Below are positions 13,892 to 35,894 of a stretch of 64,000 bases of DNA, piece by piece. The position numbers and the translations under genes are program-made. Origin of the DNA: an uncultured cyanobacterium (GTDB lineage Bacteria > Cyanobacteriota > Cyanobacteriia > Cyanobacteriales > CAWUOF01); contig CAVUSO010000001.1 of NCBI GenBank assembly GCA_963744145.1, positions 3,168,001 to 3,232,000 of the forward strand. The letters are read 5' to 3'. A model generated the notes under the pieces. It was not told the origin of the DNA. It searched no databases and saw only the letters and a list, made by a program, of their open reading frames with translations. How positions within the stretch are numbered: position 1 is the stretch's first letter; each line of letters begins with the position of its first letter.

Positions 13892-13893
13892 CT

Positions 13894-14904: not shown

Positions 14905-14914
14905 ATGATTGATC

Positions 14915-15107: not shown

Positions 15108-15254
15108 GACTCAAATTAACTGCAATTTCATAGTTAATTGGGATAACTGAGATATAAAAATCGATAATTTATATATAACTCTGTGCTTCTGCGGTTCGTT
15201 CAAAAAATCCTGTTCACAAACAAAATATACTCGCTATACATAGGTCAACTTTAA

Positions 15255-17094
<1,840 letters not shown>

Positions 17095-17095
<1 letters not shown>

Positions 17096-17466
17096 TGAAA
17101 ACTCCACTCTCTCCCTCCCGTAAGTCGCGATTACAAACGGATCGCTTTCAATTGGCGATCGCTAATAAAGAACGTCGCAAACTTTATGCTCGTCAAGCAA
17201 AACCTTATGGTGGTGTTTGGTTTGGTTTGGGTTTTGCAGGTTTAATCGGTTGGTCAGTTGTCGTACCTACTTTGTTAGGAATGGCACTAGGGATCTGGAT
17301 CGATTCCCAATTTCCCAGTCAGTTCTCATGGACATTAGCTCTAATTCTGGCAGGTTTAACCATTGGTTGTTTGATTGCATGGGAATGGGTATCGCAGGAA
17401 CAGCAACGCATGGCAAAAGCTCAACCACCCAATGATTCCTCTGAATCTCCAACTATTAAGAAGTAG
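17095..17466 (+). CDS. atpQ: N-ATPase AtpQ (AtpZ/AtpI family)
   Basis: WFGLGFAGLIGWSVVVPTLLG...WID...SWTL...GC..AW.W pattern. Confidence 0.88.
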
Positions 17467-17563
17467 TCATTTTTATAAATTAGTCTTGTCATGAGTAGGC
17501 GATCGCATCCTGATGCTCAACTTGATGATAAAATTCGATGAAATATCAGGTGCTAAAATCTCA

Positions 17564-18497
17564 ATGACACGACAGCCTCACGACCAATTTGCCAAACAGT
17601 ATTTAGCCGAACTACTTGCACCATTAGGGGAGGTTAACATCAGCCGCGAAGTCAGTGGCGAAGTTCGCCAAATCGATGTCTGGTTTGCCCCCGCATCCCC
17701 ACCTACTGCTGATCAAAAAATCTTAGGATTACTAGGTAGAATAGTCACAACGCCCTGTTTGTTGGAACCTTTTCGCAATCAACCCAGCAAAACAGAGATT
17801 CGCAACTGTATCCTCAAACTATTTTCCCTACAAAGCGAATTGCAGTCGGCAAGCTAGACGAGTGGAAGATCCGGTGATGGAAAATGAGTTACCTCAATTG
17901 TGGATTTTGGCAACTTCGGCTTCAACTACCCTACTCGATAGTTTTCGATTTAAACTAGAGTCAGATAATTGGTGTTCAGGAGTTTACTTTCTAGGGGAGG
18001 CAATGAAAACCGCAATTGTGGCGATTAACCAATTGCCAACTACACCAGATACCCTATGGCTGAGAATGCTTGGCAAAGGGACAACTCAGCAGCAAGCGAT
18101 TGAAGAAATTATTGCACTCCCAGAAACAAATCCCTTACGCACTAATATTTTGGCCCTGGTTTCTACCTGGCGAGTTAATCTACAAACCAAACAAGATTTA
18201 ACCGAAGAAGATCGGGAGTTAATTATGAATTTAACACCAGCATATATCCAATGGCGAGAAGAAACTCTGCTACAAGGACGGCAGGAAGGACGGCAGGAAG
18301 GACGCTTTGAAGAACGGCGGATTCTTGTAGAAAATTTGTTAATAGCCAAATTCGGCTCTATTGATGAGCGACTGTCAGAAGTGATTCAACCAATAATTGA
18401 ATTACCGCCACAAGAATTAACTCGAATCATGCTTAACTTATCAAATCTATCTCACGCAGATTTGTTAGCTAGGTTTGAAAATAGGGAGCATCAATAA
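17564..18497 (+). pseudogene. Rpn-like/PD-(D/E)XK cyanobacterial protein with a 1-bp insertion
   Basis: MTRQPHDQFAKQY...RQIDVWF...LLEPFRN; removing the T at about 17846 reads QRQARRVEDP into ORF 17862-18497; QEGR repeats near the C-terminus. Confidence 0.75.
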
Positions 18498-18948: not shown

Positions 18949-20365
18949 TTAGAGAATACCATGACGTGCAAATAGTTTTTCAAAGAAATCGACAATAGTT
19001 GTACTAATAGTATCTTTTGTAAACTCTTCACCTCCAAAACGATATATTTCATAACCGAGAAGTCTAATTCTTCGATCCTCAGCAACCATTTTAGCATAGA
19101 GTTCTGGTGAAGCAAATTTGTTTTTAGAATAATGATGAATGCCATCAATTTCTATAATAACTCGACTTCTATTGCGAAGAAGTATGAGAAAATCCAGCCG
19201 TTGTCTAAAAAGTATTGGTTCTGTGCGATCCTTCTGATTAATGGGATCATAATGTAGGTAAATCTGTGGCAATAATGCTGGGAGGTTATCGTGCAAACGT
19301 CGAAAAAAATTATGAAAATAGGTAGAAAAAAACAATTGTTCAGGGGTTTTTTTGTCTTCTTGTTCAGAATCTTGTTTTGCGAGAGAATCATACAATCGCA
19401 TTCCAAGCTCATTCCTCATCTCCTGATCTATGGAGTTTAGTCCTTTAAGTCTACGCTCACCACTCTAAAAGCATTCCCCAAGTAAGATCATCATTAGTCG
19501 GAGGCTGATCATAAACTAGACTATCCCTATTATTATTATCGGCAAAACTAATATCCATATTCACTGTATCAGTAATTAAAATATCAGGTTTAAGTCCAGT
19601 GGATGCAAAAATTATGTATTTGGGTGTCCCCGATACTCCTGTTGATCTTTTCCGGACTTTATATATAGGAAGTCCTCCTTGTTTACCTTCTTCACATAAT
19701 TCAAAGTCATTCTGTTTAAGCAACGCATTAATTAGTGTTATAAGATGTTGTTGGTCTGATGATGTTTGAATTTCTGGATGGACGATACGCTCAATTAATA
19801 AGCAAAAGCGTTGGTCTGGCCATTCAGATAAATTTAGTAGATTAAAAAGTTCTGTAACTGATAGTATTTTCCTTGAGGTATATGATTCTTGATATATATT
19901 TCCATCAGAATCAGTCTTCATATTGTAATATAAACTTGTATTAGGAATAACCAAATTAAAAATATCTCTAAGTGTTGATCTTCCCCAAAATTTAACTCCT
20001 TTTAAATTTTCCACAATCCTGATTCGCGTAACATTGTCAATATGCCGAACACCCTTATTTTCTATCCACCAAAGATTATCTTGAATATCTTGGATATCAT
20101 TGTCTGATAATTTATTACTCTTGATGCTTGGATAAGATTCAATCATTTTTTTAGCAGCATTAATGATAACTTCATTACTAGCATTATTTGTTATTTTAGT
20201 AAGGTATTTCTGTTTGCCCAAATTGCCTTTTTCGACATCTGGTAATCCAAGAGCATTTTTGACATTATCAAGAGTATTCCAAGTTTCTAAATTTGAAATA
20301 ATCATAACAATTTTGGAACGGAGATTATCAAATGCTTGCTGTATATCAACCATAGATATAACCAA
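18949..20365 (-). pseudogene. AbiJ-N-terminal-domain plus DUF559-like nuclease, putative defence protein, split by a 1-bp insertion
   Basis: RIVHP...KYIIFAS..KPD...LVYD..LTW in the first ORF; LLPQIYLHYDP, QRLDFL, IEIDGIHHY and DRRIRLLGYEIYRF in the second. TGG TGA G corrected to TGG TGG restores one frame. Confidence 0.7.
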
Positions 20366-20691
20366 TTTGCGACTAGAAAAATGAAATCAAAAACAAAAGC
20401 ATTATAGCTCAAATCTTAAGTATCTGGTTATGACTGTTTTTCAGCCCTTTTTCTAGCTCTATACTCGCGTTATTTTGCGGCTAGATAGGATTTTCACACG
20501 TCAGTATAACGGTTAGTAGCTCTAAGGGCTTTTAAGATACTTATCCGGTTGATTAGTTTTGTAAGACTCTTCAGACTAAATCAGCAAGTCTAGCAAGTAG
20601 GGAGAATGCAAAATATTTCCCTACTCTGGATACCAGACAAGAAGTTTCCATTTAGCTAATTGCCCAGGTTGATAGGATAATCAGCTTATGA

Positions 20692-20901
20692 CTAGGTATT
20701 AACCTCAGAAACAATCCAATCTTCGGGGACTGAAATTTGCCCTCTACCATCATCAGAAAGTAATAAATAGGTATAGCCATTGCCATTAGGGATGTGGTGG
20801 ACTATTTTCCCATATTGTAGTTTTTTATCTGGATCAGTAGCGTCGATATAGGATATCAGGCTATATTCAGCGAATTTTGGTTGCATTTGAGGCATTCTCA
20901 A
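20692..20901 (-). CDS. Small hypothetical protein
   Basis: 69-aa ORF with protein-like composition; no motif recognised. Confidence 0.4.
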   Translation of the reverse strand: MRMPQMQPKFAEYSLISYIDATDPDKKLQYGKIVHHIPNGNGYTYLLLSDDGRGQISVPEDWIVSEVNT

Positions 20902-21037
20902 ATAAATGAATAATTTATTATATAATACAGCCGCACGATCAACATACTACAGTCAAGAAAAATGATTTGCTGGCGATCACATGACCAATTAGTCCAGCTT
21001 AGTTTTTGCACTGTCCAGATAACGACTACGCGATCAC

Positions 21038-21410
21038 CTAAACCAAACCAGCAATTAACCCAGATATCTCAAGCTGGTGCTGTTGCCGATTGTCATCATA
21101 AATTAGCAATGTGTCTGTCTGTTTATGTCGTGAAAAATTTCTGGACTCTGCGAATATCACCATTAGTAGAATCGAGTGCAGCGGCGATAGATGAGTGTCT
21201 GATTCTGTGTGGACTCATCAGTTTCTTAATCCCAGCTTTCCCACAGCATTTCAACATAATTAATCATAGACTCACCGTAATCTCAGGGTTGCATGGTCGC
21301 GTTTACCTGCTAGAGTATCGCAATCGCAAATCGCAACAACCAGCAAGAACTTTCTTGAAACGTTCAACATCGATGCCAGTCGGATCTCGGTAACGCTCTA
21401 CTTTCTCACT
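21038..21410 (-). pseudogene. Tyrosine recombinase remnant A
   Basis: Manual translation: EKVERYRDPTGIDVERFKKVL ... KAGIKKLMSPHRIRHSSIAAALDSTNGDIRRVQKF[frameshift]SRHKQTDTLLIYDDNR...LIAGLV*, with catalytic HxxR, H and Y. Confidence 0.85.
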
Positions 21411-21606
21411 GGCGATCGCAGTAAAAATTAGTTGATGATTCTCATAGCACATTTTATAGATATAAATTGTAATTAATGGGATCACTTATCAATCAACAAC
21501 GTTGAGGTATAACTTCCCCAATACACTGGACTCAAATAACCTTTTACAAATCGATTACAAGTTGGATACATTCTGGGATATTAAGATTGTTAGGCGTCAT
21601 GATTAT

Positions 21607-23088
21607 TCAAGGTAGTATCTTAATGCAGTCACCAATGATCTTGTTCATCTGACTAGCCTTTGAGAAGTATTCCAATCTATGATTTCGACTAATTTTAGTT
21701 GCTCCACGAGTCCCTACTGCCGCTGCCCACGCCAGCCAATCTGATTTACCATTACGAAGATGTTCATCTCGTAATTCAATCATGCCAAATCTTTTTTCAG
21801 GTATCTCTAAAATTTTGGCACGAGATATTAAAGTTGCATTTGAATGCTCATAAAGCTCGAGCAAAATATTTGGGTAATAATGGATATCAGAGAGATAATC
21901 TTCTGCAAGTTTAGCCATCCAGAAAAGCTGATATTCAGTGATATTCTGACCATTTTTAATAAAATCGAGAATTAGAAATGCAAGGGATTCTTTATCATCC
22001 ACATATCGGGAAAAATGGTATATGTTCTTACTTAAACTTGGAAATCGGTTCAGAAAAATCTGCATTTGCTCGAGAACCTGAGTTCCATTGTCTCGAAGTA
22101 GTACCAGAATCAATTCTGCATCCGATTCATCAATATCAGGGTCTTTGAGTAGATTTAGTAAGTACTCAATTTGTTCAGGAGTCAGATTATCGTAATATTC
22201 TTCTTGCGGAAAGTTAATTTCTCCATAGGTTTCAACAATTGTTCGCCGAATCCTCAGTAAATCAGCCTTTATTTTGACAACTTCCTTTGCTACATCAATT
22301 TCATTCACCTTACCAATGATGGTCTTTGTAGGGTTTAATGAAAGTCCTTTGTCACCAAGTAACCGTTGAATAGTAAGAAAATCATCAATTAGCACACTTT
22401 CTTCATCGGAAAAGAGATAGAAATCATCCATAAATCGAAGCAGTAAGCTACATCGTAGTTTCATAGAGTTATCAATAAATTTCAAAAATTCTGCACCGAT
22501 CATCTTACAAGAATGAATACCTTGAGGTAAACAATCTATTGAAATTCCTGCATTTGCTTGTCTAAGAAATTGTCCAAGATAGCTAACATCATTTTCCGGT
22601 GCATCAATGTCACTGAACCAACTAACAATATCATGATGATATAATGAGTTGAAATAGGTAGCTATATCAAATTTAAGAGCAAATTTATATCTTTTTTTTG
22701 CAGAAGCAATATGTTTTTTGAAATCTTCATAGCTTCTAGATGAAGGTATGGGTTTTCCCTTCTCAAATTGATAACCAAAGCTACGCCGAGTCTTTTGAAA
22801 ATCTTTTCTAAAGAGGTTTCGATTTCTATAAATAATATCGTAAATAAATAACTCAGCAATAGGATCAAGTTTTACTGTTCGACGCAAATGAAAGCCCTGC
22901 TTTGAAGCATAACACCTAGTTTGTGATAAAAAAGAGTGTTGAGTATTTTTTATATCTAGCACTTTTTCATAGACATATTGAAGAGTTTCTTTTCCATGAT
23001 TCTCTGCAATCACTTTTGTAGTTGAGAGTGGAAATAGAGTTTTAGGATAGTCGTCTATAATATACTGAATACTTGTATAGTTGTTCAT
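21607..23088 (-). CDS. drt5: Defence-associated reverse transcriptase, most like DRT type 5
   Basis: KFDIATYFNS, LPQG and RFMDD RT motifs; N-terminal TLFPL and HLRRTVKLDP.AE; helical C-terminus; 493 aa. Subtype assigned from recalled similarity only. Confidence 0.7.
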   Translation of the reverse strand: MNNYTSIQYIIDDYPKTLFPLSTTKVIAENHGKETLQYVYEKVLDIKNTQHSFLSQTRCYASKQGFHLRRTVKLDPIAELFIYDIIYRNRNLFRKDFQKTRRSFGYQFEKGKPIPSSRSYEDFKKHIASAKKRYKFALKFDIATYFNSLYHHDIVSWFSDIDAPENDVSYLGQFLRQANAGISIDCLPQGIHSCKMIGAEFLKFIDNSMKLRCSLLLRFMDDFYLFSDEESVLIDDFLTIQRLLGDKGLSLNPTKTIIGKVNEIDVAKEVVKIKADLLRIRRTIVETYGEINFPQEEYYDNLTPEQIEYLLNLLKDPDIDESDAELILVLLRDNGTQVLEQMQIFLNRFPSLSKNIYHFSRYVDDKESLAFLILDFIKNGQNITEYQLFWMAKLAEDYLSDIHYYPNILLELYEHSNATLISRAKILEIPEKRFGMIELRDEHLRNGKSDWLAWAAAVGTRGATKISRNHRLEYFSKASQMNKIIGDCIKILP

Positions 23089-23144
23089 GTTTCAGAATAT
23101 AAAAGTAAAATCTGTTGTCCTTGAGGAACTGGCTAGGCAGCATC

Positions 23145-23360
23145 TCAGTTTTGCAAAAACACTGCATAGGGAAAACTACGCAAGTTTGGTACTAAATAAG
23201 CACGACTACGACCAATCTTGGGATTGATAGCTAGTTTTTCCATACACCCATGTAAATTTCTGATCAATGTGATCGCTCGCTCAAAATTATCCACAGCGAT
23301 GTAGTCAAAAATATCAGTCAGGTCGGTAAAAGCCTGTGGTCTAATAATTACCTTGACCAT
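23145..23360 (-). pseudogene. parE: ParE/RelE toxin, C-terminally truncated
   Basis: AFTDLTDIFDYIA...NPKIGRSR...LRSFPY, then an early stop; final strands missing. Confidence 0.85.
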
Positions 23361-23620
23361 TTAATTAGCCTTTGTCTGTTGAGTATAGCGTTGTCTGCCT
23401 CGCTCAATAAAATCTTCAACATCAAAAGGCTGAGGTTCACCGCTGTCAATACCAGCTTGGACCTGCACTCGTAATTCATTCAGGCGGATCTGCTTTAAAG
23501 CATCGTGATCTTTCAGAAGCCTTAGCCCTTCTCGGATGACTTCACTAGCGGAGTTATAATATCCGCTTGCTACCTTGTCGGCTATATACTTTTCTAATTC
23601 TGGTTGAGTGAAACATTCAT
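23361..23620 (-). pseudogene. parD: ParD (RHH) antitoxin, frameshifted after codon 5
   Basis: MNVSL[frameshift]PELEKYIADKVASGYYNSASEVIREGLRLL...GIDSG; its stop abuts the parE ATG. Not in the ORF track. Confidence 0.88.
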
Positions 23621-23727
23621 AGATTCTTGCTCCTGTGCATCTACTTTTATTTTACATTGAATAACCAGAAATAGCAATATTTGTTATTCTCCTAAACCGA
23701 CTCAGCAATCAAACTATTTTTATATTG

Positions 23728-23755
23728 CAACACTGCCGCGATCGCGGCAGTGTTG
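23728..23755. repeat. Perfect 28-bp palindrome centred on HIP1
   Basis: CAACACTGCCGCGATCGCGGCAGTGTTG. Confidence 0.95.
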
Positions 23756-23962
23756 ATTCAAGGCTCAGAACCGAGCGATCGCTTCACTCCTGGGGTCACC
23801 ACTTTCTACCCGTCTGCGGACTCGTGCGATCACAACTATCCCCAACATCCAGATAACCACTTTTCAAGAAATCAAGTAATTCCAAATATCCAGACCAAAA
23901 CTGGATAGCATAGGTCACCATCAGCCTACTCTGAACACTTATCAACCGGATAAAATTGAGCC

Positions 23963-24361
23963 ATGACTAAAATCAATAAAAATACTATAGATTCGGTTCG
24001 TGATCTATTTATTAGAGGGACTCGATATATTAGTGGTATAAAATTAAAAGTAGCGCAATTAGTCTCTGGTATTGAAACACAGCGACTAGCCCGCAATTAT
24101 CAAGTAGAACGGGTGTTGCGTTGGTATGAAAAACAGGGTGACGCGCTAGTTGGCGAAAAAGTGTTGAGTAACATAGAATTGTCCGAACTTCAACAACTAT
24201 TTGATCAACCATTAGATAATTTGATGTATGAGTGTTATTTGGTGACAGACGAGCAAGTGAATTATCTTCAGGAAAGGCTAAACCAAACCTTTGATCTGCA
24301 ATCCTATGAATATTTTGTAGACTGTGATGTAGTATGCGAGCTAAACCAACCCAGCAATTAA
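23963..24361 (+). CDS. Small protein with a colicin E3 immunity-like C-terminal domain
   Basis: LRWYEK...GE...CYLV...YLQ..LNQTFDL..YEYFV pattern; start uncertain. Confidence 0.55.
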   Translation: MTKINKNTIDSVRDLFIRGTRYISGIKLKVAQLVSGIETQRLARNYQVERVLRWYEKQGDALVGEKVLSNIELSELQQLFDQPLDNLMYECYLVTDEQVNYLQERLNQTFDLQSYEYFVDCDVVCELNQPSN

Positions 24362-25030: not shown

Positions 25031-25210
25031 ATAGACTGGCCATCTCTACACTTTATGTACTGGTTGTCCAGATATGAAAGCGTGTTTAGCGGATCGCAGT
25101 AAAAATTAGTTGATGATTCTCATAGCACATTTGATAGGTATAAATTGTAATTAATGGGATCACTTATCAATCAACAAGGTTGAGAATCTGAAAATTTTTT
25201 CCAAAACCAC

Positions 25211-25240
25211 TAGACAAATAATTTTTGATATTGTTATAAT
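25211..25240 (+). promoter_or_regulatory. Sigma70-type promoter of tRNA-His
   Basis: TAGACA-18 bp-TATAAT with extended TG, just upstream of the tRNA. Confidence 0.7.
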
Positions 25241-25252
25241 GGATAACGCGAT

Positions 25253-25326
25253 GGCGAGCGTAGCCAAGTGGTTAAGGCAGTGGATTGTGGTTCCACCACT
25301 CGCGGGTTCGAGTCCCGTCGTTCGCC
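25253..25326 (+). tRNA. trnH: tRNA-His(GTG)
   Basis: Acceptor GCGAGCG/CGTTCGC, anticodon arm GTGGA-TTGTGGT-TCCAC, T loop TTCGAGT, G-1 and C73; CCA not encoded. Confidence 0.97.
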
Positions 25327-25350
25327 CTTATTAATGGGGATCATCTTTTT

Positions 25351-26658
25351 TTAGTGGATCGCATCTGGTAACTCTTGTTCAATCAGTTGTAAACGTGGGT
25401 TTTGAAAACCTTTGATGGCGATCGCAACTGTTCCCATCCCCATTAAGATCAAAAGAAAGGCAATTCCTCGTCCTGGACCGACTCCGACTAGATGTCCAAT
25501 CGTACCAGCTAACCAACCATTTTGGGCTAATAGGGGTTCAAAAATTAAATCGGCTAATGGACCAGCAAGAAAATAAGCGATCGGTACAGGTATCCAAGTT
25601 ACCATCCAACGGACCGAAAAGACTCTTCCCTGGACATCAGCAGGAATTTTACTTTGCCAAATGGCATTATTGGAGCCAATAATAAAGGGAGCACTAAATA
25701 ATCCGACAAAGCAAAAAAAGGCAATCCAACCCACGGAACGACTTAAACCCACAGCAATAATTGATAATCCTAATAATAATTCAAACCCCAGAATCCCATA
25801 GACTCGTTTTTTTGGCCCGCCCCAGGTACTCATAATGATTAGTCCGCTCATCATGGCAATTCCTGCTGCTGTAAAAACTATACTAAGTTCTTTAGTAGTA
25901 GCAAAACTTAAGATCATGGGCACCATTAATACTTGAGAAATGCTAACCATAAAATTAGTTAAGGCTAATAAAATTACTAATGCTAATAAACCAGGGTATT
26001 TGGCAATATAAGTCCAACCATAAACTGCATCTTTTAAGATCGAACTCTGCTCATGTTGACCTGAAGAAGTTTTTTCATGTTTGCTAAATCTCGCTAGTAA
26101 TAAAGTCACCACAGAAAACATAAAGCTGGCTAAATCCAGCACTAAAATTCCTTTAATTTTAATTTGTGCAACTAAGAGACTGGCTAAAATTGGTGCTATT
26201 AATTTTTCTGCTGCGTAGGGAACTTGAATCATTCCACTCACTCGACCAAAATGTTTTTTTGGCACCATTTGGGTGATCGCGGCACAATATGCGGGCCATT
26301 GGAACCCTTTAAAAATAGAAGTGGTAGCAGCAGCAATATAGATGGGCCATATTTCATGGCGATCGCCTAAAATTAGGGCAATAATTAGCAAAGAGCCAAA
26401 AGCTGCGCCAATTTCACTGACAATCATAATAGTACGACGGTTAGCACGATCAGCCAATGCTCCTGCAAAGGGCGATATTAATATTCCTGGTAATTCACTG
26501 AATACATAAATCAGGGTAAATTCGGTAACAACTCCAGTAGTTTGATAGATCCAGATCCCCATCGCAAAACCAGTTAGACCAGAGCCAAGTAAGGAAACTA
26601 CTTGACCCAACCAAACCAAAGCAAACATTTCCATCCCTTTGGCTATGGGGCGTTGCAT
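25351..26658 (-). CDS. MFS exporter (DHA3/macrolide-efflux-like)
   Basis: WLGQVVSLLGS, GALADRANRR and QGRVFS motifs; many TM helices. Confidence 0.9.
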   Translation of the reverse strand: MQRPIAKGMEMFALVWLGQVVSLLGSGLTGFAMGIWIYQTTGVVTEFTLIYVFSELPGILISPFAGALADRANRRTIMIVSEIGAAFGSLLIIALILGDRHEIWPIYIAAATTSIFKGFQWPAYCAAITQMVPKKHFGRVSGMIQVPYAAEKLIAPILASLLVAQIKIKGILVLDLASFMFSVVTLLLARFSKHEKTSSGQHEQSSILKDAVYGWTYIAKYPGLLALVILLALTNFMVSISQVLMVPMILSFATTKELSIVFTAAGIAMMSGLIIMSTWGGPKKRVYGILGFELLLGLSIIAVGLSRSVGWIAFFCFVGLFSAPFIIGSNNAIWQSKIPADVQGRVFSVRWMVTWIPVPIAYFLAGPLADLIFEPLLAQNGWLAGTIGHLVGVGPGRGIAFLLILMGMGTVAIAIKGFQNPRLQLIEQELPDAIH

Positions 26659-26676
26659 ATTTTCCTTTTTCCTAAA

Positions 26677-27588
26677 CTATGAAACTTTCCCAATTTTACT
26701 GAGTGCTTGAACATGAACTTCGATCTGATCTGCTGAATCTGTAATTAAATCTTCATCAAAAACGATCGCACCTGGTTCAAATAGTAATACTACGGTAGAC
26801 CCTCCAAATTTAAAATAACCTTTTTCTTGTCCTTTTTTCACCTGACCAGGAGTAAATGTTTGGATAATGCTACCAACGCAAATAGCACCTACTTCTATAT
26901 AAGCAATTTTTCCGAAATTTTGAGAATCAAACTCAGTCACACTACGTTTATTGCGACAAAATACATCCGGGATCTTAGTTAAAGCGATCGGATTGACTGA
27001 ATGATATTCTCCTTTAATATTTTGAGTGGGTTGAGCTAACCCATCATCAGGAAAATGAAACCGATGATAATCATAAGGAGCAAGACGAACTATCAATGCT
27101 GATCCATGATGATAGGGTTTGGCTAATTCGGTTGATGCTAATAATGATTCAATGGTAATTGTAGCTGTTTTTACTGGTAAATGGGTGGCGGTGGTTAATC
27201 TTGGATAAACTAATACTTTCCCTTCTGCTGGAGCGCAAAATATAGATGAGTCTTGGGGAATTGGTCTAGCTTCGGGTTTGAGTTGGCGATAGAAAAAAGC
27301 ATTATAATGGGGATAGTCAGCGATCGCTAATTCTGCTTCTTCCATCTTAATTTGATATTTAGCCACAAAATCGGGGATTTTTTTGCGACTACTGGGTAGT
27401 TCTTGTAATTTTCCATATAACCAGCAAAACACTTGGTGATTGAGGAAATACTGAAAAACTTGAAACCCGAGAGAATCTTCATACAACCAGCGTAAAGTAT
27501 TTTCAGCAAAAATATTTTCAGTAATCAGTTTACGAGTTTGGCGATCGCGATAAATAACTGCTGTCTGGGGATTAGCAATAAGAGTCAT
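26677..27588 (-). CDS. psd: Phosphatidylserine decarboxylase proenzyme
   Basis: NAFFYRQLK, RLAPYDYHRFHFP, SVNP and GYFKFGGST (self-cleavage Ser). Confidence 0.92.
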   Translation of the reverse strand: MTLIANPQTAVIYRDRQTRKLITENIFAENTLRWLYEDSLGFQVFQYFLNHQVFCWLYGKLQELPSSRKKIPDFVAKYQIKMEEAELAIADYPHYNAFFYRQLKPEARPIPQDSSIFCAPAEGKVLVYPRLTTATHLPVKTATITIESLLASTELAKPYHHGSALIVRLAPYDYHRFHFPDDGLAQPTQNIKGEYHSVNPIALTKIPDVFCRNKRSVTEFDSQNFGKIAYIEVGAICVGSIIQTFTPGQVKKGQEKGYFKFGGSTVVLLFEPGAIVFDEDLITDSADQIEVHVQALSKIGKVS

Positions 27589-27617
27589 TCAATCCTCTCT
27601 CCTCCAACTGATTTAGA

Positions 27618-28256
27618 CTAAAAAATCTCTACTCTACCAAGTATAGCCCAAATATAAATACCTGTCAGCCCTAATGCTCCCAATCCAAATAACCCGTACC
27701 AGATCCCCCGGATTTTCACCATTTGAAAATTAGCTACCATCGCTATAGCTAAGATGAAATATATCCCAGCTAAAACCCATTTCATTATTTCCACTGGTAA
27801 CACAAAACTTGCTGTAAATGTCAAGGGGATGAATAAAGCTGCATAAGTTACAGGTAATCCCGTAAAATACTCATTATTGCCAGTTGTAGTTAAACCTGTA
27901 CTATTAAAATAAGCTAACCGCAATACATTCGCACTAATATAGATCATCAATAAAGCGATCGAGAATAGATCTTGTAATCCATAACAATAAGCAACGATCG
28001 CTGGACTGAAACCAAAAGAGCATATATCGGCTAAACTGTCAAGATGTTTCCCGACCTCAGCTTGCAATTCAGTCCGTTGCATTTTGCGAGCAATAAATCC
28101 ATCAAATAAATCAATTATACCTGCATAAATCAGACAAATCATTGCCGCATAAAAATTTTGTTCGATCGCAAATATTACACTCAAAAAACTTAATATTAAT
28201 CCAGTTAAAGTCAGAGCATTCGGGAAATCAAGTTGACGAATAATAGGACTGAGCAT
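27618..28256 (-). CDS. pssA: CDP-alcohol phosphatidyltransferase, PssA-like
   Basis: PNALT, DLFDGFIAR...GKHLDSLAD, LRLAYFN and FTGLP motifs. Confidence 0.82.
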   Translation of the reverse strand: MLSPIIRQLDFPNALTLTGLILSFLSVIFAIEQNFYAAMICLIYAGIIDLFDGFIARKMQRTELQAEVGKHLDSLADICSFGFSPAIVAYCYGLQDLFSIALLMIYISANVLRLAYFNSTGLTTTGNNEYFTGLPVTYAALFIPLTFTASFVLPVEIMKWVLAGIYFILAIAMVANFQMVKIRGIWYGLFGLGALGLTGIYIWAILGRVEIF

Positions 28257-28263
28257 AGTTATT

Positions 28264-29136
28264 TTAGGGGATAGCTAAATTAGTGCTATGTTGAGTGATT
28301 ACGATGGGATTTTTCGATAAAATTTGCAGAATTATATCAAACATCTCTTGTTGAATATAAGCATCTTGGTAAATAGCATTTTTACCCGCGTGGGTGATAA
28401 TTTGGGGTTGATTAGGATATTTTAAAATCGGTGATCCATCAGCATTGTATCTATAGGATTGCTCTTTTTGATTAGAATAGCTAGCAGGATAAACTGCTGT
28501 TATTTCTCCACTATCTTGGGGGTTCATTGGAGCTCCAATATAATACCCAGTTCCAGGTATGGGTAATGCTGGAATTCCTCCCGGAAGAGATGAATATTTT
28601 GTCCAACGATTATAAAAATAGCCGATATTTTCCGCAACTGCTTCAGTAGTTCTGCGGTATTTTTGGTTAACTCCATCTAATACTGCTAAAAAAGTAATTT
28701 GACGTGAACCGATTTGGTGAGCTAGTTTGAGCAGAGCATTTCCTCCAAAACTATGTCCGATTAAAATTATTGGTCTACTGGGTGCGATCGCGGGGATCAC
28801 TTCCTCTACCATTTGACGAATAAATTTCCGATCGTCTAAATCTGAATATGCTGATCTCCGTCTGATATAAATATTATTCCAGTCTAAATCATAAACCGCT
28901 ATCTTTTTTTCCCTTAACTTTTTTTTAAGTTCAGGGGTCATACAAGGAGCACAACCACCGAATCCATTGACTAAAAAAACTATTGGTCCATCACTGGTTT
29001 TGATTTCTTCCCAGTTAATACTGGTCCCACTTGGATCAATTTTACCACAATTGCCACCCAATATGCTAAATCCACTAGATATTACGGCGATCGCGAAGTT
29101 TTTTGTCCAAGCTGTAACTAAATTTCCTAGTTTCAT
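28264..29136 (-). CDS. Alpha/beta hydrolase (lipase/thioesterase-like)
   Basis: VFLVNGFGG oxyanion region, GHSFGG nucleophile elbow and LAVLD. Confidence 0.7.
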   Translation of the reverse strand: MKLGNLVTAWTKNFAIAVISSGFSILGGNCGKIDPSGTSINWEEIKTSDGPIVFLVNGFGGCAPCMTPELKKKLREKKIAVYDLDWNNIYIRRRSAYSDLDDRKFIRQMVEEVIPAIAPSRPIILIGHSFGGNALLKLAHQIGSRQITFLAVLDGVNQKYRRTTEAVAENIGYFYNRWTKYSSLPGGIPALPIPGTGYYIGAPMNPQDSGEITAVYPASYSNQKEQSYRYNADGSPILKYPNQPQIITHAGKNAIYQDAYIQQEMFDIILQILSKNPIVITQHSTNLAIP

Positions 29137-29147
29137 GGTGCTAACAT

Positions 29148-30014
29148 TTAACTAATATTAATTAAATTATGGATGAAAAGTAAGTAGATAATCGGGGAAG
29201 TAAAGAGAAAATTATCAAATCGATCTAATATACCCCCATGACCAGGTAATAAATTACTAAAGTCCTTAATTCCTAACTTTCTTTTTAATGAAGACAGTAA
29301 CAAATCTCCAGCATTACCAAAAAACAAAATCGCGCTAAATAGCAGAAAGTCTTGATAGATATTATTTGCACTTAAAACTGGAAGATATGTATGTAAAATC
29401 ATGATCCCTAAAATAATCCCTACTCCTCCAAATAAATAACCTTCCAGGGTTTTCGACGGACTAATTTTTTTAAATAAATGGATTTTCCCAAAAGCTTTCC
29501 CAAATAAATAGCCAAAAGCATCATTCAGTTGTAAAAGTAATAGTAGCATTACGATTGTTTCTGGTTGGATTTCCATTAATTCCACCAAAAAATTTGCGGA
29601 AGGAATCAGAAAAAATAAGGAAAATGCTAATAAATATCCGGGTTGCCTGATTAATTTAGAATTACCGAGGAAAGTGACTAAACAAATACAAGTAAATAGG
29701 GGAATTGTAAAGATGATCAATTGACTATTCAAAAGTAAATAGACAAAAAACATGATTTGCGAAATTCCAAATAAACTTAATAAAGTTTGATTAATCGCAT
29801 AATTCTTAGCTACTTCATATAACGCGAATAAAAAAATAAAAGACGCTAAGATTGTAAAGGACATAGTACCATTGACGATCGCGAAACAAATAATATGTAA
29901 TAACATTACTAATGTTATTGATCTAATTATAGTTTCTTTCTTTTTCTGGAAAATAGAAATTCCTAAGACTGTCAAAATTAGAGCTAGGGATAAACAATAA
30001 AAAAGAGTTAACAT
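29148..30014 (-). CDS. cdsA: Phosphatidate cytidylyltransferase family protein
   Basis: ISPSKTLEG and IKDFSNLLPGHGGILDRFD signature. Confidence 0.9.
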   Translation of the reverse strand: MLTLFYCLSLALILTVLGISIFQKKKETIIRSITLVMLLHIICFAIVNGTMSFTILASFIFLFALYEVAKNYAINQTLLSLFGISQIMFFVYLLLNSQLIIFTIPLFTCICLVTFLGNSKLIRQPGYLLAFSLFFLIPSANFLVELMEIQPETIVMLLLLLQLNDAFGYLFGKAFGKIHLFKKISPSKTLEGYLFGGVGIILGIMILHTYLPVLSANNIYQDFLLFSAILFFGNAGDLLLSSLKRKLGIKDFSNLLPGHGGILDRFDNFLFTSPIIYLLFIHNLINIS

Positions 30015-30112
30015 TGTTAATGATTTGTTAATAATTTTGGACTGATGACGATCTGTCTGTTTTGGTAACAGCTTGAAGGAAATTTAATTGTCAAGGAAAA
30101 ATAACGACCTAT

Positions 30113-30877
30113 CTAGATTTTTTTCGTCAATAGGATAGTACCCCTAAACTCATCTTCTAAGGGGAAAATTCCTGGAGTCTGAGAAATAGTATCAATTTGT
30201 GCTTGGGTAAGAACTGAGAAATATTGAGTTAACCATCCTGATTTAAGTCCCCAATTATATAATTCTGAGAAATCAGCAAATCGCACTTTTTCCTGAAGAG
30301 TTACATGATCAAGAATTTCCAAACCTACCATTTTTAAAAGATTTTTTAAAGCTGTGGGAGTTGCTGGAACTTGAGCCATTTTCTTAATATCTTCGATCGA
30401 CATAAAATTTTGGGCTAAAGATTGCATGACTTGAAAGCTTTCATAGGTAGATGTAGCAATAGAACATAATCCACCTGGGTGCAAAATTTTAGCAGCATCA
30501 GTAAGAATTTTTTCTGGCTCGACATAACTCAAGATAAAATGAATCAATACTAAATCAATCCGATTTGGTTCGATGTAATTAAGGACATTATTCACATCAT
30601 CATGAAAGGTAGTAATTGCCATTTTCTTTTTGGCAATTTCAATCATATTTTTGGAGATATCAATCCCATATAAATCCGCATCAGGATATAATTCTTTTAT
30701 TTCTAAAAGTATTTCTCCCGTACCTAGAGCCATGTCTAAAATGCTATGAATCGATCCAGTCACAGATTGATTTTTTAATTGGCTCACAACTAGATGACGA
30801 GATTTACTTAATAACTCAAATTGGTCATAATCGTAAGACTCGGCAATTAATTCATCATACATATTCGCAATATTCAC
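30113..30877 (-). CDS. Class I SAM-dependent methyltransferase
   Basis: ILDMALGTG, GIDIS and LHPGG; AGGAG before the GTG start. Confidence 0.9.
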   Translation of the reverse strand: MNIANMYDELIAESYDYDQFELLSKSRHLVVSQLKNQSVTGSIHSILDMALGTGEILLEIKELYPDADLYGIDISKNMIEIAKKKMAITTFHDDVNNVLNYIEPNRIDLVLIHFILSYVEPEKILTDAAKILHPGGLCSIATSTYESFQVMQSLAQNFMSIEDIKKMAQVPATPTALKNLLKMVGLEILDHVTLQEKVRFADFSELYNWGLKSGWLTQYFSVLTQAQIDTISQTPGIFPLEDEFRGTILLTKKI

Positions 30878-30928
30878 AATTTCATCTCCTGATTGACTAA
30901 AAAAACTATTTACCGTTAACCTCTTTGC

Positions 30929-33749
30929 TCAATTTCCTAAATTTTCCACTGCTTCTCTTAGACATTGAGTGAGTTGATTTTCAGCAGCCCAACCTTCTAC
31001 TCCCGAAGGAGGTAAAATTGGTACACCAAAGACAATCCGCAACTTTTGACGTTGAAATTTAATCTGACTAAATAGGTTGGGGATACGTCGATGAGCAGGA
31101 AAAATTGAGTAAGCACCAATAATTCGGACTGGAATTAAGGGAGCACCTGTCGCTAAAGCTAGTTTAGCTGGACCACGACGAAACGGTAAAAGTTCTCCTG
31201 TCCGAGTACGTGTTCCTTCTGGATGAATTAAGAGAGGACGACCAGCACATAAAGCTTTATGTCCAGCACGAATCGCTGGTAAAACATCCCCCTGACGATC
31301 GATGGGAATACCACCAGCAATACTAGCAAATAAACGGGTAGAAAGGTGATCGAAATGTTCCCGTTTAGCAAAACTGCATAAATTACGTCGGACAGAAGGA
31401 TGTAAACAAGCAGCAATCCAAAAAACATCTAGATGAGATTCATGGTTAGGACAAAGAATAAATGGTCCTGTTGCTGGTAAATGTTCTAATCCACTTACTT
31501 CTAATCCCCATACCATCTGAGAAATTAGACGAAAATAAGATAAAGTTAAACGAGTCAAAAAACCCCGTGGTGGGGGGACTTTTTCCATCCGATCACCACC
31601 TAAAAGATCCTCTGCTAAGGATGATTTTACGATCGGAGTATTTTTACTTGTTAATGCTTGACGGACTGCTGCGACCAAATCACCAACACTGTGAAAAATT
31701 GGGAGATTTTGTTCATCTATTTTAATCCCAAATGCCCTTTCTAACTTAGCAGCTAATTCCACTACTCCCAGGGAATCAAGTCCGAGATTAGATTGCAAAG
31801 TTGAATTGAGATTAATCTGAGAACATCCTCCGATCTCCTGCATTGCTTCATTCAAGATTGTGATTACACCGATCGCAATTTCATCTTGATTTTTATCCGT
31901 CGTCGCGATCGCTGGTAAAACAGATGTTTCTCCCCTCTCGATCGCCCGCGCTAGACCACTAGTAAAAACCACATCTAAACTTTGTTGCAAAAATCCAGTT
32001 CGACAAGCATGACGCTGAATCTTACCACTAGAAGTCTTAGGAATACTCCCAGGTTTAATTAATAAAATCTGATCAACTTGTAATTGATGATGTTCAACTA
32101 CTGCTTGTCTAATTATTGATGCAATTGATTCTAACTCTGTCTGAGATTTACTGGGCTCGTTCGGATTAGTTTCCGACTGATTAGAACGACGACGTTCTAG
32201 ATACTTCCGTTCAACCTCAGCGACAATAATTAAACGTTCCTGTTCATCTAAGTCTACCGCAAACGCTGCTACCAAACCAGTTCTAATGGCTGGTGAACTT
32301 TTTTCTACAGTTGCTTCTAAATTCTTGAGGATAATGGTTACGACCTCTGATAATAATTAAATCTTTAATCCGACCAGTAACAAATAATTCACCATCTTTG
32401 ATAAAACCTAAATCACCAGTTCGCAGAAATGGACCTGCTCCCGTTTCTACTTCATAAGCTTGGAAGGTATTTTTAGTAGCGATCGGTGCATTCCAGTAAC
32501 CCAGAGCGACACTTGGACCAGCAACCCAAATCTCACCTACGCGCTCTGCTGAACATTGCATCTGGGTATGGGGATCAACAATGATCGTTTTTTGATCCAG
32601 CCAATTTTGACCACATCCCACTAAAGTTCTGGTATCATTATCCATTTCAGTGGCGGCGATCGCCCGATCTTGACTTAATTCCGTCCCCTTAACCTGATAT
32701 ATAACTGGAGTAACTCCTTTAGCACTACCACATACTGCTACAGTTGACTCAGCTAACCCATAACAGGGAGAAAAAGCTGTCGGACTGAAACCACATTCAG
32801 CAAAGATTGAGGTAAACTTCTCTAAGGTTTCCGAACGAATTGGTTCAGCTCCATTAAAAGCAACCTTCCAACTACTTAAATCAAGATTGATTCTTTGTTG
32901 AGCAGTAATTTTTTGAATACAAAGTTCATAGGCAAAATTTGGCCCACCACTAGTATGGGCTCGATAACGAGAAATTGCTTGTAACCATCGAACCGGACGC
33001 TGGAGAAAAACCACAGGGGACATCAGAATTGCTTGGGAGCCAATAAATAAAGCTTGAATTGTATTGCCTAAACCCATATCATGGTATAGGGGCAACCAAC
33101 TAACATAGCTAGATGTCTGATTATGCTGACAAGCTGTCTGAATAATGCGTTGATTGTGGATTAAATTACCATGACTAATCATTACCCCTTTCGGAGCTGA
33201 AGTTGAACCAGATGTATATTGGAGAAACGCTAGGGTTTGTGCATCAATTGCTGGTTCTTCCCATACTCCCGTGAAATTAATTTGATCTGTAGCGAACCAG
33301 GACATGGCTTGCAGATCAGAATACTGAGTAAACTGTCGTTCAATCTGAGCTAAGATGCTACTCGTGGTCAGACTAATCGTTGCTTGAGCATCAGCCACAA
33401 TTGCTTGTAAACGCTTGAGCGACTGGTTCAGTCGCGGTGGATAAGCAGGAACCGCCACCACCCCAGCATATAAGCAACCAAAAAATGCCACAATAAATTC
33501 TAATCCTGGAGGATAGAGCATCAATGCCCTTTTCCCAGTTGCGTTCAGACTTTGTAGTAGTCCCGCGATCGTCTGGGCTTGTTGATCCAATTCTTGATAA
33601 GTTAGACTAGTTTCTTGGTTTTCTCCGTCTTCGAGAAAGATAAAAGCAATTTCTGTGGGCTGAGTAATTGCTCTAGAACGTAAGAGTTCAACTAGCGTAT
33701 CAAACTCAAGAGTAGGAATTGGGTCGCAAAGCGTAATATTCATCGACAA
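30929..33749 (-). CDS. Fatty acyl-AMP ligase-ACP-PlsC-type acyltransferase fusion, interrupted by a 1-bp insertion at about 32322
   Basis: LQYTSGST, YGLAE, LRTGD and GRNHYPQ; removing one A gives DLEATVEKSSPAIRTGLVAAF, then PKTSSGK, ACP LGLDSL, and acyltransferase NHESHLD and HPEGTR. Confidence 0.88.
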
Positions 33750-34127
33750 TTCAAAATAAGTAAGGTTAATAGTAATTTTCTGGCGGGAAATTCACAGTGG
33801 CAAAGGTATTTACCCTGAATTTAGTTTAAACTTGGATTCAGTCTTAACATTGCATAATTTACTCATCACTTGATTGAGACTGAGGATATTGGCCACTCGG
33901 AGGACTGATCTATGTTTTAATTGGGATCACTCATTATATCTTCTCACCAGATTATTTAAGTTAATCTTAACCTTTTTTTACCATTTAGTCACAAATTGAT
34001 CAGACTTAATTTTTAAATAGTATTCACAAAAATCTTCGCATATTGCTTTAAACTAGCCAAAAATGGTTTGACCGCTCACTGACAGGGGATCAAGTGATCA
34101 AAATGTTGTTTCAAAATTGATAGGGTA

Positions 34128-35894
34128 ATGTTACTATCCCTGCGGATTGAAAATTTTGCTCTGATTGACCATCTGGAGTTAGAATTTGGTCATGGGTTAA
34201 ATGTTCTTACTGGTGAAACTGGAGCTGGTAAGTCAATTATCCTGGACGCATTAGATGCAGCATTAGGAGGGAAACTCACCTCAAGAGCAGTTCGGACTGG
34301 TGCAAATCGCTCCTTGGTAGAAGCAACTTTTGAATTGAAACCAGATGTAGCCCAATGGTTGCGGAATCAGGAAATTGAGCTGTTAGAAGAGACATTAGTC
34401 GTCGCAAGTCGGGAACTGGTTTTAAGTGTAGGGGGAGTCAGAAGTCGCTCCCGTCTCAATGGTGTATTGGTGAATCGTCAATTGATGGATCAATTGCGCG
34501 ATCGCTTAGTGGAAATTACCGCTCAAGGTCAAACCAGTGGTTTAGGAAAAGCGGCTTTACAACGAGACTGGTTAGATTTATATGGTGGTCAGATCATCCT
34601 TCAGCAACGTCAAACTGTCGCTGCGGCTTTTGCTGCTTGGACTTCGGCTCGATTAGCTTTAGAAAAGAGAAGACAATCAGAACAGCAACGTCTCCAACGT
34701 CTAGATTTGTTGACTTATCAAAGTCAAGAACTGAGTACCGCTAATCTCACGGATATCGATGAATTAGAACAACTTGAGCAAGAACGTAATCGTTTAAGTC
34801 ATGTAGTTGATTTGCAAAAAGAAAGCTATCAAGTCTATGCAAATTTATATGAACAAGAGAACGGCGATCGAGCTGCCGCAGACTTGATTGGTCAAGCAGA
34901 AGCCACTTTAAGCGATATGGTGATTTATGATAGTCAATTACAACCCATTCTCGAAATGGTGCGAGATGCTTTAGCTCAAGTAACCCAAGCAGGAAGACAG
35001 CTAGCTAGTTATGGTGCTAGTCTAGAAGCTGACCCAGAAAGATTGAGCGAAGTAGACGAGAGAATTCGGGAATTAAAACAAATTTGCCGTAAATATGGAC
35101 CGACATTGACCGAAGCGATCGCATACCGCGATCGGATTCAAGTCGAATTGACCGAACTCTGGTCAGATGGTCAGTCCCTGGATACCTTAGAACAAGCGGA
35201 ACAAATTTGCACTGCTCAATTAATTGCAGCTAGTGAAAAACTGACTAAGTTACGTTGTGCTAGTGCCAATCAACTAGAATCCCATTTAATTGCAGAACTG
35301 AAACCTCTAGCTATGGCAAAAGTTCAGTTTCAAGTAGATATTATGCCCTGTACCCCCACCGCAGCAGGAGCAGACCAAATTACTTTTAGTTTTAGTCCTA
35401 ATCCTGGTGAACCCATGCAACCTCTAGGTGCGATCGCTTCGGGAGGAGAAATGAGTCGCTTTCTCTTAGCACTGAAAGCTTGTTTTTCCCAGGTTGATCA
35501 AGTACCTACTTTAGTCTTTGATGAAATTGATGTGGGTGTGTCTGGTAAAGTTGCTCAGACGATCGCCCAAAAACTTTATCAACTCAGTGATCACCATCAA
35601 GTTCTCTGTGTTACTCATCAACCAATTGTCGCTGCTATGGCTGATTGCCATTTTCGGGTCAACAAACAAGTCATCGAACCCTCACAGATCGGAACAGAAA
35701 ATTTTCTCCCGGTTTCTGGGCCAAATGATTTACGAACCGTTGTGCGAGTGGTAACTTTAGATCATCAGCAACGCCGGGTCGAACTGGCCCAATTAGCTAG
35801 CGGACAGTCAGACTTAGAAGCGATCGCTTTTGCCGAATCTCTGTTAACTCAAGCAGAACATTTGCGGCAAAAACCAAATTCCCATTTGGCTTAA
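34128..35894 (+). CDS. recN: DNA repair protein RecN
   Basis: GETGAGKS, ASGGE and FDEID motifs. Confidence 0.97.
   Translation: MLLSLRIENFALIDHLELEFGHGLNVLTGETGAGKSIILDALDAALGGKLTSRAVRTGANRSLVEATFELKPDVAQWLRNQEIELLEETLVVASRELVLSVGGVRSRSRLNGVLVNRQLMDQLRDRLVEITAQGQTSGLGKAALQRDWLDLYGGQIILQQRQTVAAAFAAWTSARLALEKRRQSEQQRLQRLDLLTYQSQELSTANLTDIDELEQLEQERNRLSHVVDLQKESYQVYANLYEQENGDRAAADLIGQAEATLSDMVIYDSQLQPILEMVRDALAQVTQAGRQLASYGASLEADPERLSEVDERIRELKQICRKYGPTLTEAIAYRDRIQVELTELWSDGQSLDTLEQAEQICTAQLIAASEKLTKLRCASANQLESHLIAELKPLAMAKVQFQVDIMPCTPTAAGADQITFSFSPNPGEPMQPLGAIASGGEMSRFLLALKACFSQVDQVPTLVFDEIDVGVSGKVAQTIAQKLYQLSDHHQVLCVTHQPIVAAMADCHFRVNKQVIEPSQIGTENFLPVSGPNDLRTVVRVVTLDHQQRRVELAQLASGQSDLEAIAFAESLLTQAEHLRQKPNSHLA

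Follow-up and report, generated by a model that had tools for sequence, protein, structure and literature searches.

A candidate gene cluster for a second, phosphatidylethanolamine-type phospholipid in an uncultured oxygenic cyanobacterium

We analyzed a 64,000-nucleotide (nt) stretch of DNA (hereafter the window; G000:C1:3168001-3232000) from the 7.7-Mb, 4-contig genome of an uncultured cyanobacterium. It carries a seven-gene cluster on the minus strand (25351-33749) that combines a FAAL-ACP-PlsC fusion protein with CdsA, PssA-like, and Psd enzymes, a methyltransferase, an alpha/beta hydrolase, and a transporter of the MFS family. With moderate confidence, we interpret this cluster as a dedicated de novo route from a free fatty acid to a phosphatidylethanolamine (PE)-type lipid, which would represent a second phospholipid gene set in this genome. 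The gene content and order of the cluster, the integrity of its motifs, its paralogy, its conservation, and its distribution are direct observations.

An earlier note, made from the letters of this DNA, had described seven tightly spaced and co-oriented genes beside a tRNA-His, and their coordinates, strand, and gaps were all confirmed. The seven genes derive from eight open reading frames (ORFs) in the ORF list, all on the minus strand, and are transcribed in the order FAAL-ACP-PlsC, methyltransferase, CdsA, hydrolase, PssA-like, Psd, and MFS, with intergenic gaps of 51, 98, 11, 7, 29, and 18 nt. The protein families named in the same note also held up, as Pfam and NCBIfam agreed with them: every cluster protein scored above the curated Pfam cut-offs, except for the hydrolase, which had a sub-threshold Abhydrolase_6 match and was assigned from its GHSFG motif and its fold.

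Both psaA and psaB were found on the window's own contig (C1), so that the host is an oxygenic cyanobacterium. A housekeeping CdsA is encoded at C1:3514042 (221 bits; the cluster copy reached 144.5 in that search), and a PgsA-type transferase (145 bits), three other PlsC-family genes, and an Sfp-type phosphopantetheinyl transferase (PPTase) are also encoded elsewhere in the genome. Given these separate housekeeping CdsA, PgsA-type, and PlsC genes, the cluster forms an additional and, as had been proposed, self-contained route, duplicating the housekeeping CdsA, PlsC, and CDP-alcohol transferase and contributing the only Psd of the genome. Indeed, the cluster Psd was the sole match to PF02666 in the host, and the same search of a control genome, Synechococcus elongatus, yielded no match.

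The first gene of the cluster (30929-33749, minus strand) encodes a FAAL-ACP-PlsC tridomain protein, identified with Pfam and NCBIfam, which is 939 amino acids (aa) long if one base is removed from the assembly. As assembled, this loader is split into an ORF for the N-terminal part of the FAAL (32283-33749, 488 aa) and a second one (30929-32275, 448 aa) for the FAAL C-subdomain, the ACP, and the PlsC domain. Pfam scores were 224 bits for AMP-binding, 37.7 bits for PP-binding, and 93.1 bits for Acyltransferase (PF01553, cut-off 23). The top NCBIfam models were all FAALs (PRK05850, FadD21, FadD32, and PRK12476), with a carrier domain following; the best of these scores, 407 bits for PRK05850 against a cut-off of 775, was obtained from the N-terminal 488-aa piece alone, because the assembly splits the gene. 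Across a 14-sequence alignment, the ACP serine (Ser168, LGLDSLG) and the PlsC motifs H278-x4-D283 and E353-G-T-R356 (EGTR) were invariant. The PlsC domain scored 72.7 bits with the lysophosphatidic acid (LPA) acyltransferase model vs 71 bits with the acyl-[ACP]--phospholipid O-acyltransferase model PRK08633. No NAD_binding_4 reductase domain was detected by Pfam in the window loader, and an ester rather than an ether product would thus be expected.

The loader shares 65-66% identity with an intact 936-aa protein (P0001) and with a 936-aa ORF (L157:2695-5505) from G403, a genome of the same family and another genus. Its fusion architecture is widespread, with 807 long proteins at E ≤ 1e-10, including forms headed by polyketide synthase (PKS) or nonribosomal peptide synthetase modules. 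We also scanned contigs with an ACP-PlsC alignment, keeping the best 80 of at least 508 relatives (600 stretches or more), a selection in which P0001 and P0002, both relatives at 65-66% identity, were not retrieved. Among these best 80 loci, the fusion was accompanied by the CdsA-hydrolase-PssA-Psd-MFS set in a single case, that of Symploca, while one other included a CdsA match, and one a Psd match. When the fusion was used as query against the sample from the window's order, 64 of 401 genomes matched at E ≤ 1e-20, although a full-length match was obtained in the host genome and G403 alone; the remaining ones matched the FAAL C-subdomain or, for G617 and G618, the PlsC part. Among uncharacterized domain organizations, PMC8460268 notes a FAAL fused to a lysophospholipid acyltransferase, the same type as the window loader, and gives neither a function nor a gene context for it.

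Downstream, three genes encode the enzymes that would build the head group. The CdsA paralog (CDP-diacylglycerol synthase-like; 29148-30014, minus strand) matched CTP_transf_1 (PF01148) with 144.8 bits (cut-off 24) and contains the C-terminal CdsA signature motif; it is divergent, with 67.1 bits vs a cut-off of 385 for the equivalog model PRK11624. The PssA-like type II CDP-alcohol phosphatidyltransferase (27618-28256, minus strand; CDP-OH_P_transf, PF01066, 62.1 bits, cut-off 22) ranked best with the NCBIfam model for archaetidylserine synthase (97.5 bits), followed by pssA (TIGR00473, 79.9 bits, under its equivalog cut-off of 107), Pcs (45.9 bits), and PgsA (29.4 bits). It includes the motif DLFDGFIAR...G...D...D, an instance of the family pattern D-x2-D-G-x2-A-R...G-x3-D-x3-D, and it aligns to the phosphatidylserine (PS) synthase 7pow; its closest solved relatives are the PS synthases 7pow and 7b1k. 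The model ranking and the neighboring Psd both suggest that this enzyme uses serine. Finally, the PS decarboxylase proenzyme Psd (26677-27588, minus strand; PS_Dcarbxylase, PF02666, 189 bits, cut-off 22) passed TIGR00163 (134.4 bits vs a cut-off of 111.75), narrowly missed PRK00723 (363.9 vs 371), and displays the G-S-T self-cleavage motif at residues 263-265 (GGST, 262-265). Because equivalog cut-offs were missed, substrate identities are assigned here from family and neighborhood only.

From family membership and gene neighborhood, we infer the substrates, product, and destination of the following route. The FAAL would adenylate a free fatty acid and load it onto its own in-cis ACP, from which the C-terminal PlsC domain would pass the acyl chain to a lysophospholipid, most simply LPA, thus creating a private pool of phosphatidic acid. 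The cluster CdsA paralog would convert this pool to CDP-diacylglycerol, to which the PssA-like enzyme would add serine, and Psd would then decarboxylate the resulting PS to PE. The methyltransferase is predicted to place its methyl group on the head group or on the acyl chain. The lipase-like hydrolase and the MFS protein would act late, deacylating the lipid and/or carrying it, or a lyso form of it, through the cytoplasmic membrane.

The combination of CdsA, a type II PssA, and Psd is the bacterial PE route, as in Bacillus subtilis, and the window contains the same three families with intact motifs, adjacent to one another but for a hydrolase gene between cdsA and pssA. Unlike the Bacillus-type route, however, the window set consists of extra copies beside the housekeeping CdsA and PgsA of an oxygenic cyanobacterium, its CdsA and PssA score below equivalog cut-offs, and it is joined to a carrier-dependent loader, to a methyltransferase and a hydrolase that are both rare, and to an MFS protein.

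Related clusters were detected in other genomes. On contig C7 of G403, a divergent recN-like gene (69% identity) is followed by an uninterrupted 936-aa FAAL-ACP-PlsC gene (65-66%), the methyltransferase (64%), CdsA (74%), and the hydrolase (57%), after which comes a GmrSD restriction gene on the opposite strand. Contig C194 of the same genome begins with PssA (75%), Psd (69%), and MFS (55%), and then an Sfp-type PPTase, which therefore also adjoins the cluster in this genome. In Symploca sp. SIO1C2, the genes for KS-AT-ACP-PlsC, CdsA, hydrolase, PssA, Psd, and MFS occur in the same order with 48-67% identity, with KS-AT-ACP-PlsC in place of FAAL-ACP-PlsC and with a CMAS-family methyltransferase upstream. 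That G403 and Symploca SIO1C2 share this gene set and its order indicates that the grouping is more than chance.

Four further oxygenic genomes join PssA and Psd to other lipid genes, in three of the four together with CdsA. The G617 locus encodes a FAAL, a megasynthase (ACP, luciferase-like monooxygenase, methyltransferase, reductase, ACP, PlsC), HAD, ADH, and LarA-like proteins, a diacylglycerol kinase, CdsA, PssA, Psd, and MFS. In G676 (L128, C13:36000-49661), a desaturase of the FA_desaturase family, an SDR-family protein, CdsA, PssA, an FAD oxidase, PlsC, a FAAL-ACP-reductase, MFS, and Psd are found, while G407 (L129, C28:22000-38465) encodes a desaturase, an SDR-family protein, CdsA, PssA, the same FAD oxidase, and Psd. 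The fourth, G514, displays PssA and Psd on a 6.3-kb contig. Both psaA and psaB were present in all five order genomes tested (G403, G617, G676, G407, and G514). The earlier note had beforehand made its proposal depend on co-occurrence elsewhere, and 6 other oxygenic genomes showed it. Judged by their family annotations, the variant sets would each lead to an intermediate of the phosphatidic acid type beside CdsA, and it is chiefly on this ground that we favor the direction from PlsC through CdsA and PssA to Psd. In G676, the FAD oxidase matched the mammalian alkyl-DHAP synthase (AGPS) at E 8e-162, and G676 and G407 both seem to encode a complete oxygen-dependent ether-lipid route beside CdsA-PssA-Psd, from which PE of the alkyl or plasmalogen type would be expected in cyanobacteria.

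Across the order sample, the window Psd used as query matched 16 of 401 genomes at E ≤ 1e-10, the host included. Strong matches (E ≤ 1e-100, 55-69% identity) were obtained in 5 of the 400 other genomes, and weak ones (28-34% identity) in 10 genomes (L116-L125), with ORFs of 394-463 aa; the latter represent a different and longer Psd-like protein in these ten other oxygenic genomes. In the phylum sample, 32 of 401 genomes matched. The 31 matches other than the host came from 12 families (31 of 225 genomes), all outside the window's order, and psaA and psaB were absent from all five of these Psd holders that were tested; no Psd match was obtained in the 30 families listed by name in this sample. 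One non-photosynthetic phylum member (L132; G070:C23:16000-35999) encodes CdsA, PssA, and Psd on one strand, separated by ~370-aa ORFs with no Pfam match and located near an HMG-CoA reductase and a desaturase-like gene. In a Psd tree of 33 rows, built with no outgroup from other phyla and after dropping the fragment L108, the 7 oxygenic sequences grouped together (branch support 85/79), beside sequences from these non-photosynthetic families. A single origin with later loss or lateral spread would agree with this topology, which points to no particular donor. A recent horizontal island was considered as well and is unsupported by composition, with a cluster G+C content (GC) of 0.378 vs 0.394 for the genome (sd 0.019; 17.5th percentile); the recN-side neighbor kept in G403 also speaks against it.

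The apparent frameshift in the loader lies at 32320-32322, directly after the FAAL NHYPQ motif. Contigs of one soil metagenome run (X1), which may be the source of the genome assembly, contained 87% of sampled words of the stretch, and next to none of these words were found in runs X2 and X3; no RNA run was among those listed for the locus. Against window positions 25200-34200, the X1 contigs agreed in 15 of 15 cases at ≥99%, in line with a 1-kb comparison, and the listed differences over these 9 kb were an A>G change at 32320 and one base omitted at 32322, and nothing else. Read by hand, the corrected minus strand gives cct caa gat cta gaa, i.e., P-Q-D-L-E in frame, a conserved FAAL motif (PQDIE in P0001). 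The two loader ORFs are offset by one frame (33749 - 32275 = 1474 = 3 x 491 + 1), so that one base fewer gives a continuous gene of 2820 nt and 939 aa, compared with 936-938 aa for the closest relatives. The FAAL gene had been described as needing repair, a view that does not seem to hold, since the X1 contigs, independent and of the same strain, read it in frame. The break is probably an error in the assembly consensus: it is very unlikely that a chance error would hit the break and restore both the frame and the conserved aspartate. This correction falls short of proof because the correcting contig has a depth of 4.9. We rejected a pseudogene reading of the FAAL gene, as X1 restores the frame with the sole listed difference over 9 kb. 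Elsewhere in the window, a phosphoglucomutase/phosphomannomutase gene (2795-4506, minus strand) is also split into overlapping ORFs, 3625-4506 (domains I-II) and 2795-3688 (domains III-IV), which would fit scattered assembly indels.

The remaining three genes may shape the fate of the product. The class I SAM-dependent methyltransferase (30113-30877, minus strand) matched Pfam Methyltransf_25 (54.3 bits), Methyltransf_31, and Methyltransf_11, and belongs to a tiny clade, a search of 5.8 billion proteins having yielded just 13 at E ≤ 1e-10, one of them from Symploca. This clade appears largely tied to this cluster type, and contigs of equal size (9754, 9863, and 56352) suggest that several of its members may be co-located with relatives of the hydrolase or of PKS-ACP-PlsC. 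Its AlphaFold2 model (pLDDT 85) retrieved with Foldseek generic small-molecule O-, N-, and S-methyltransferases (HvrF, OxaG, BioC, GtmA, JHAMT), with a phosphoethanolamine N-methyltransferase at rank 32. Head-group N-methylation, suggested in the earlier note, is not indicated: the Legionella PmtA model NF045882 scored 27.8 bits vs a cut-off of 390, the UbiE and BioC models scored higher, and, given also the generic fold matches, we dropped the assignment as a head-group N-methyltransferase (PmtA). In the ESM Atlas, the methyltransferase and the hydrolase fell in generic clusters only.

The hydrolase (28264-29136, minus strand; Abhydrolase_6, 21.6 bits vs a cut-off of 26.3) is a divergent, lipase/thioesterase-like alpha/beta hydrolase by fold, with a hydrophobic N-terminal extension and a GHSFG nucleophile elbow. 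Its family comprises 29 proteins at E ≤ 0.001, and those with a named source are mostly cyanobacterial; none of the close relatives has a precomputed Pfam domain, and some relatives are fused to ricin-type lectin domains. Residues S129 (GHSFG), D154, H249, C62, and C65 are invariant in the family alignment, and the first three would make a catalytic triad. The AlphaFold2 model (pLDDT 80) displays an alpha/beta-hydrolase fold with residues 1-37 disordered, and its Foldseek matches were weak (TM 0.3-0.57; AroC, Bacillus subtilis LipA, thioesterase domains, APT1, Lp-PLA2). A sequence search of the PDB gave a best match of only E 0.03-0.05, and a metagenome scan with the hydrolase alignment yielded 2 short loci (2.0 and 3.4 kb) with no usable context.

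The last gene (25351-26658, minus strand) encodes a DHA3/EntS/Mef-like MFS protein (MFS_1 106.9 bits, MFS_3 44.2 bits), a predicted lipid or lysolipid translocator. Its best model was DHA3 (TIGR00900, 167.8 bits, below the cut-off of 319.6), it scored 29 bits with the LplT-containing fusion model PRK08633, and a PDB sequence search gave no match. Orthologs with 43-55% identity adjoin PssA/Psd in G403, Symploca, G617, and G676, and the MFS accompanies PssA/Psd in 5 of 7 oxygenic loci overall. In G586 (L175/L176; end of C31, start of C58), a hydrolase relative cut by both contig ends is followed by an MFS 53% identical to that of the window. None of PlsC, CdsA, PssA, or Psd was found near this pair, nor any Psd genome-wide with the window Psd query. 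The hydrolase and MFS, standing alone in G586, thus form a sub-module of their own. Hydrolase trimming and export, both part of the proposal in the earlier note, are plausible.

Several observations weigh against a dedicated de novo PE-type route. The PlsC domain scores equally on both acyltransferase models, and its acceptor could be lyso-PE; the equivalog models were missed by CdsA (67 vs 385), pssA (79.9 vs 107), and DHA3 (168 vs 320); the G403 cluster lies on two separate contigs and has a GmrSD gene after the hydrolase; the window assembly carries a frameshift and the depth of the correcting contig is just 4.9; the window-type methyltransferase was not found in the Symploca SIO1C2 genome; and the hydrolase and MFS, found as a pair alone in G586, need not act on PE. 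The main rival explanation starts from Escherichia coli, in which Aas is the acyl-ACP synthetase/2-acyl-glycerophosphoethanolamine acyltransferase and LplT is its MFS flippase. In an analogous cycle, lysolipid generated by the hydrolase on the outer side of the cytoplasmic membrane would be flipped inward by the MFS and re-acylated with a free fatty acid by FAAL-ACP-PlsC, and CdsA, PssA, and Psd would only supply the starting PE. We consider this cycle unlikely. As in Aas-LplT, one polypeptide unites adenylation, a carrier-dependent step, and a PlsC-type acyltransferase, and an MFS gene adjoins it; the PlsC domain reaches 71 bits on PRK08633, level with its score on the LPA-acyltransferase model, the MFS touches the MFS part of PRK08633 with 29 bits, and the hydrolase-MFS pair is kept as its own unit in G586. 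However, the domain order is reversed, the PlsC region mapping to positions 3-170 of 719 in PRK08043, the ACP is built in, and the adenylation domain is of FAAL type. The equivalogs for Aas and LplT-Aas fusions (PRK08043, PRK08633, and PRK06814 were scored) are far off, at 39.2 vs 886, 71 vs 1221, and 43.7 vs 1349 bits, and the MFS fits DHA3/Mef/EntS (168 bits) far better than the LplT part (29 bits). In addition, the variant clusters keep CdsA beside PlsC-type enzymes with no hydrolase, a better fit to de novo synthesis.

A secreted metabolite, for which a PE-type product would be deacylated and pumped out as a (methylated) lysophospholipid with a signaling or allelopathic role, is in our view also improbable, even though a FAAL-ACP loader with a DHA3/EntS-like exporter is the pattern of natural-product clusters. 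The rare methyltransferase and hydrolase families (13 and 29 matches), which largely co-occur with this cluster type, and the patchy distribution (5 of 400 other order genomes) are consistent with this reading, and the ricin-type lectin fusions of some hydrolase relatives suggest an extracellular site; yet the Symploca relatives do not share the N-terminal extension of the hydrolase (82-84% query coverage), and the direction of the MFS is not readable from sequence. Still less probable is a head group other than serine or ethanolamine, with the PssA-like transferase using another alcohol and the Psd-like enzyme acting on the product. The missed pssA equivalog (79.9 vs 107) and the narrowly missed PRK00723 (363.9 vs 371) would allow it, but the serine-synthase models lead Pcs and PgsA by a wide margin, the solved relatives found are PS synthases only, Psd scores above the TIGR00163 cut-off and contains the GST self-cleavage site, and PssA and Psd adjoin in 7 of 7 oxygenic loci. 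Finally, the loader could be a true pseudogene in a decaying relic that no longer works, to which the assembly frameshift at 32320-32322 and the GmrSD gene interrupting the G403 cluster after the hydrolase would both point. This we regard as very improbable, as X1 contigs restore the frame with the sole listed change over 9 kb, the catalytic motifs are all intact, the other six genes are uninterrupted, and the split phosphoglucomutase at 2795-4506 would fit scattered assembly indels.

Returning to the de novo PE-type route, its loading step has parallels in other systems. AGPAT domains reportedly occur in PUFA (polyunsaturated fatty acid) synthases, and in the window protein, as with such an AGPAT or ElbD, a carrier-bound acyl chain would be handed directly to a C-terminal PlsC/AGPAT domain. 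ElbD and agps are presented as ether-lipid enzymes of myxobacteria in PMC13159169. The ElbD reductase (NAD_binding_4) is found in the G617 and G676 relatives and not in the window protein, and, unlike the myxobacterial elb clusters, the window cluster includes no elbB/C/E-like genes. A sponge-symbiont preprint (10.64898/2026.06.23.733905, 2026) reports CDP-alcohol transferases near elb clusters.

The surroundings of the cluster are heterogeneous. The tRNA-His(GTG) gene (25254-25327, plus strand) lies 23 nt past the MFS stop, and at the other end a divergent intergenic region of 378 nt by ORF coordinates (33750-34127), the presumed promoter region, separates the cluster from a recN-like gene. 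A promoter/terminator scan found sites no more often than in shuffled sequences (24 vs 30.5; 6 vs 6.7), with one weak sigma-70-like site (33803-33775, minus strand) within this region. Positions 1-4000 and 6001-8000 of the window form compositionally foreign blocks of GC 0.54-0.55 vs 0.39 for the genome, containing a glycogen-phosphorylase-like gene (136-2442), the split phosphoglucomutase gene, and a P-type ATPase gene (5917-8427). They are followed by a co-oriented F-type ATPase array (10213-18497, plus strand) with the subunits a, b, alpha, and gamma, then beta and epsilon, an ATPase_gene1 (AtpQ/AtpI-like) protein, and two small unassigned ORFs, possibly a second, N-type operon. Between the ATPase genes and tRNA-His lies a defense/mobile patch (18949-24361) with AbiJ_NTD3 (19457-20365), a reverse transcriptase (21607-23088), a ParE toxin (23145-23360), and DUF7683 (23963-24361); in G403, the GmrSD restriction gene is inside the cluster, whereas this patch is outside it, beyond tRNA-His. 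Further along (47405-58935, minus strand), two tandem genes of ~1900 aa combine Ser/Thr protein kinase, AAA_16, GAF, and histidine-kinase ATPase domains in the same architecture, with several cyclase and response-regulator genes on either side.

Beyond the window itself, the variant loci raise a broader and more speculative possibility, which we put forward tentatively and consider rather doubtful in its full form, namely that a shared head-group cassette of CdsA-PssA-Psd and MFS is mounted on interchangeable loaders in a so far undescribed class of "designer aminophospholipid" clusters. These loaders would be FAAL-ACP-PlsC here, PKS-ACP-PlsC in Symploca, and FAAL-ACP-reductase with AGPS, SDR, and desaturase elsewhere, so that PE might be ester-linked in some cyanobacteria and of an ether-linked, plasmalogen type in others. 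The rare hydrolase and MFS of the window might release the lyso form into the envelope or the medium.

The sole phospholipid of cyanobacterial membranes is normally phosphatidylglycerol, and oxygenic cyanobacteria are not known to produce PE-type lipids. The earlier note knew of no described cluster with this layout, and none turned up here: a search of full-text literature, with subscription journals and MIBiG/antiSMASH outside its scope, found no PE or ether-PE cluster described for oxygenic cyanobacteria. The enzymes themselves are textbook families, and the loader fusion type is already mentioned in the literature. The AGPS-bearing loci indicate that oxygen-dependent ether-lipid (plasmalogen-like) synthesis may be present in cyanobacteria, on which we found no paper. 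The cluster itself provides a concrete and testable gene set for lipidomics and, if our interpretation is true, shows a carrier-protein loader feeding a chosen fatty acid straight into a phospholipid. An intact and conserved PE-type route in a few oxygenic lineages would, if true, widen the known lipid repertoire of the phylum.

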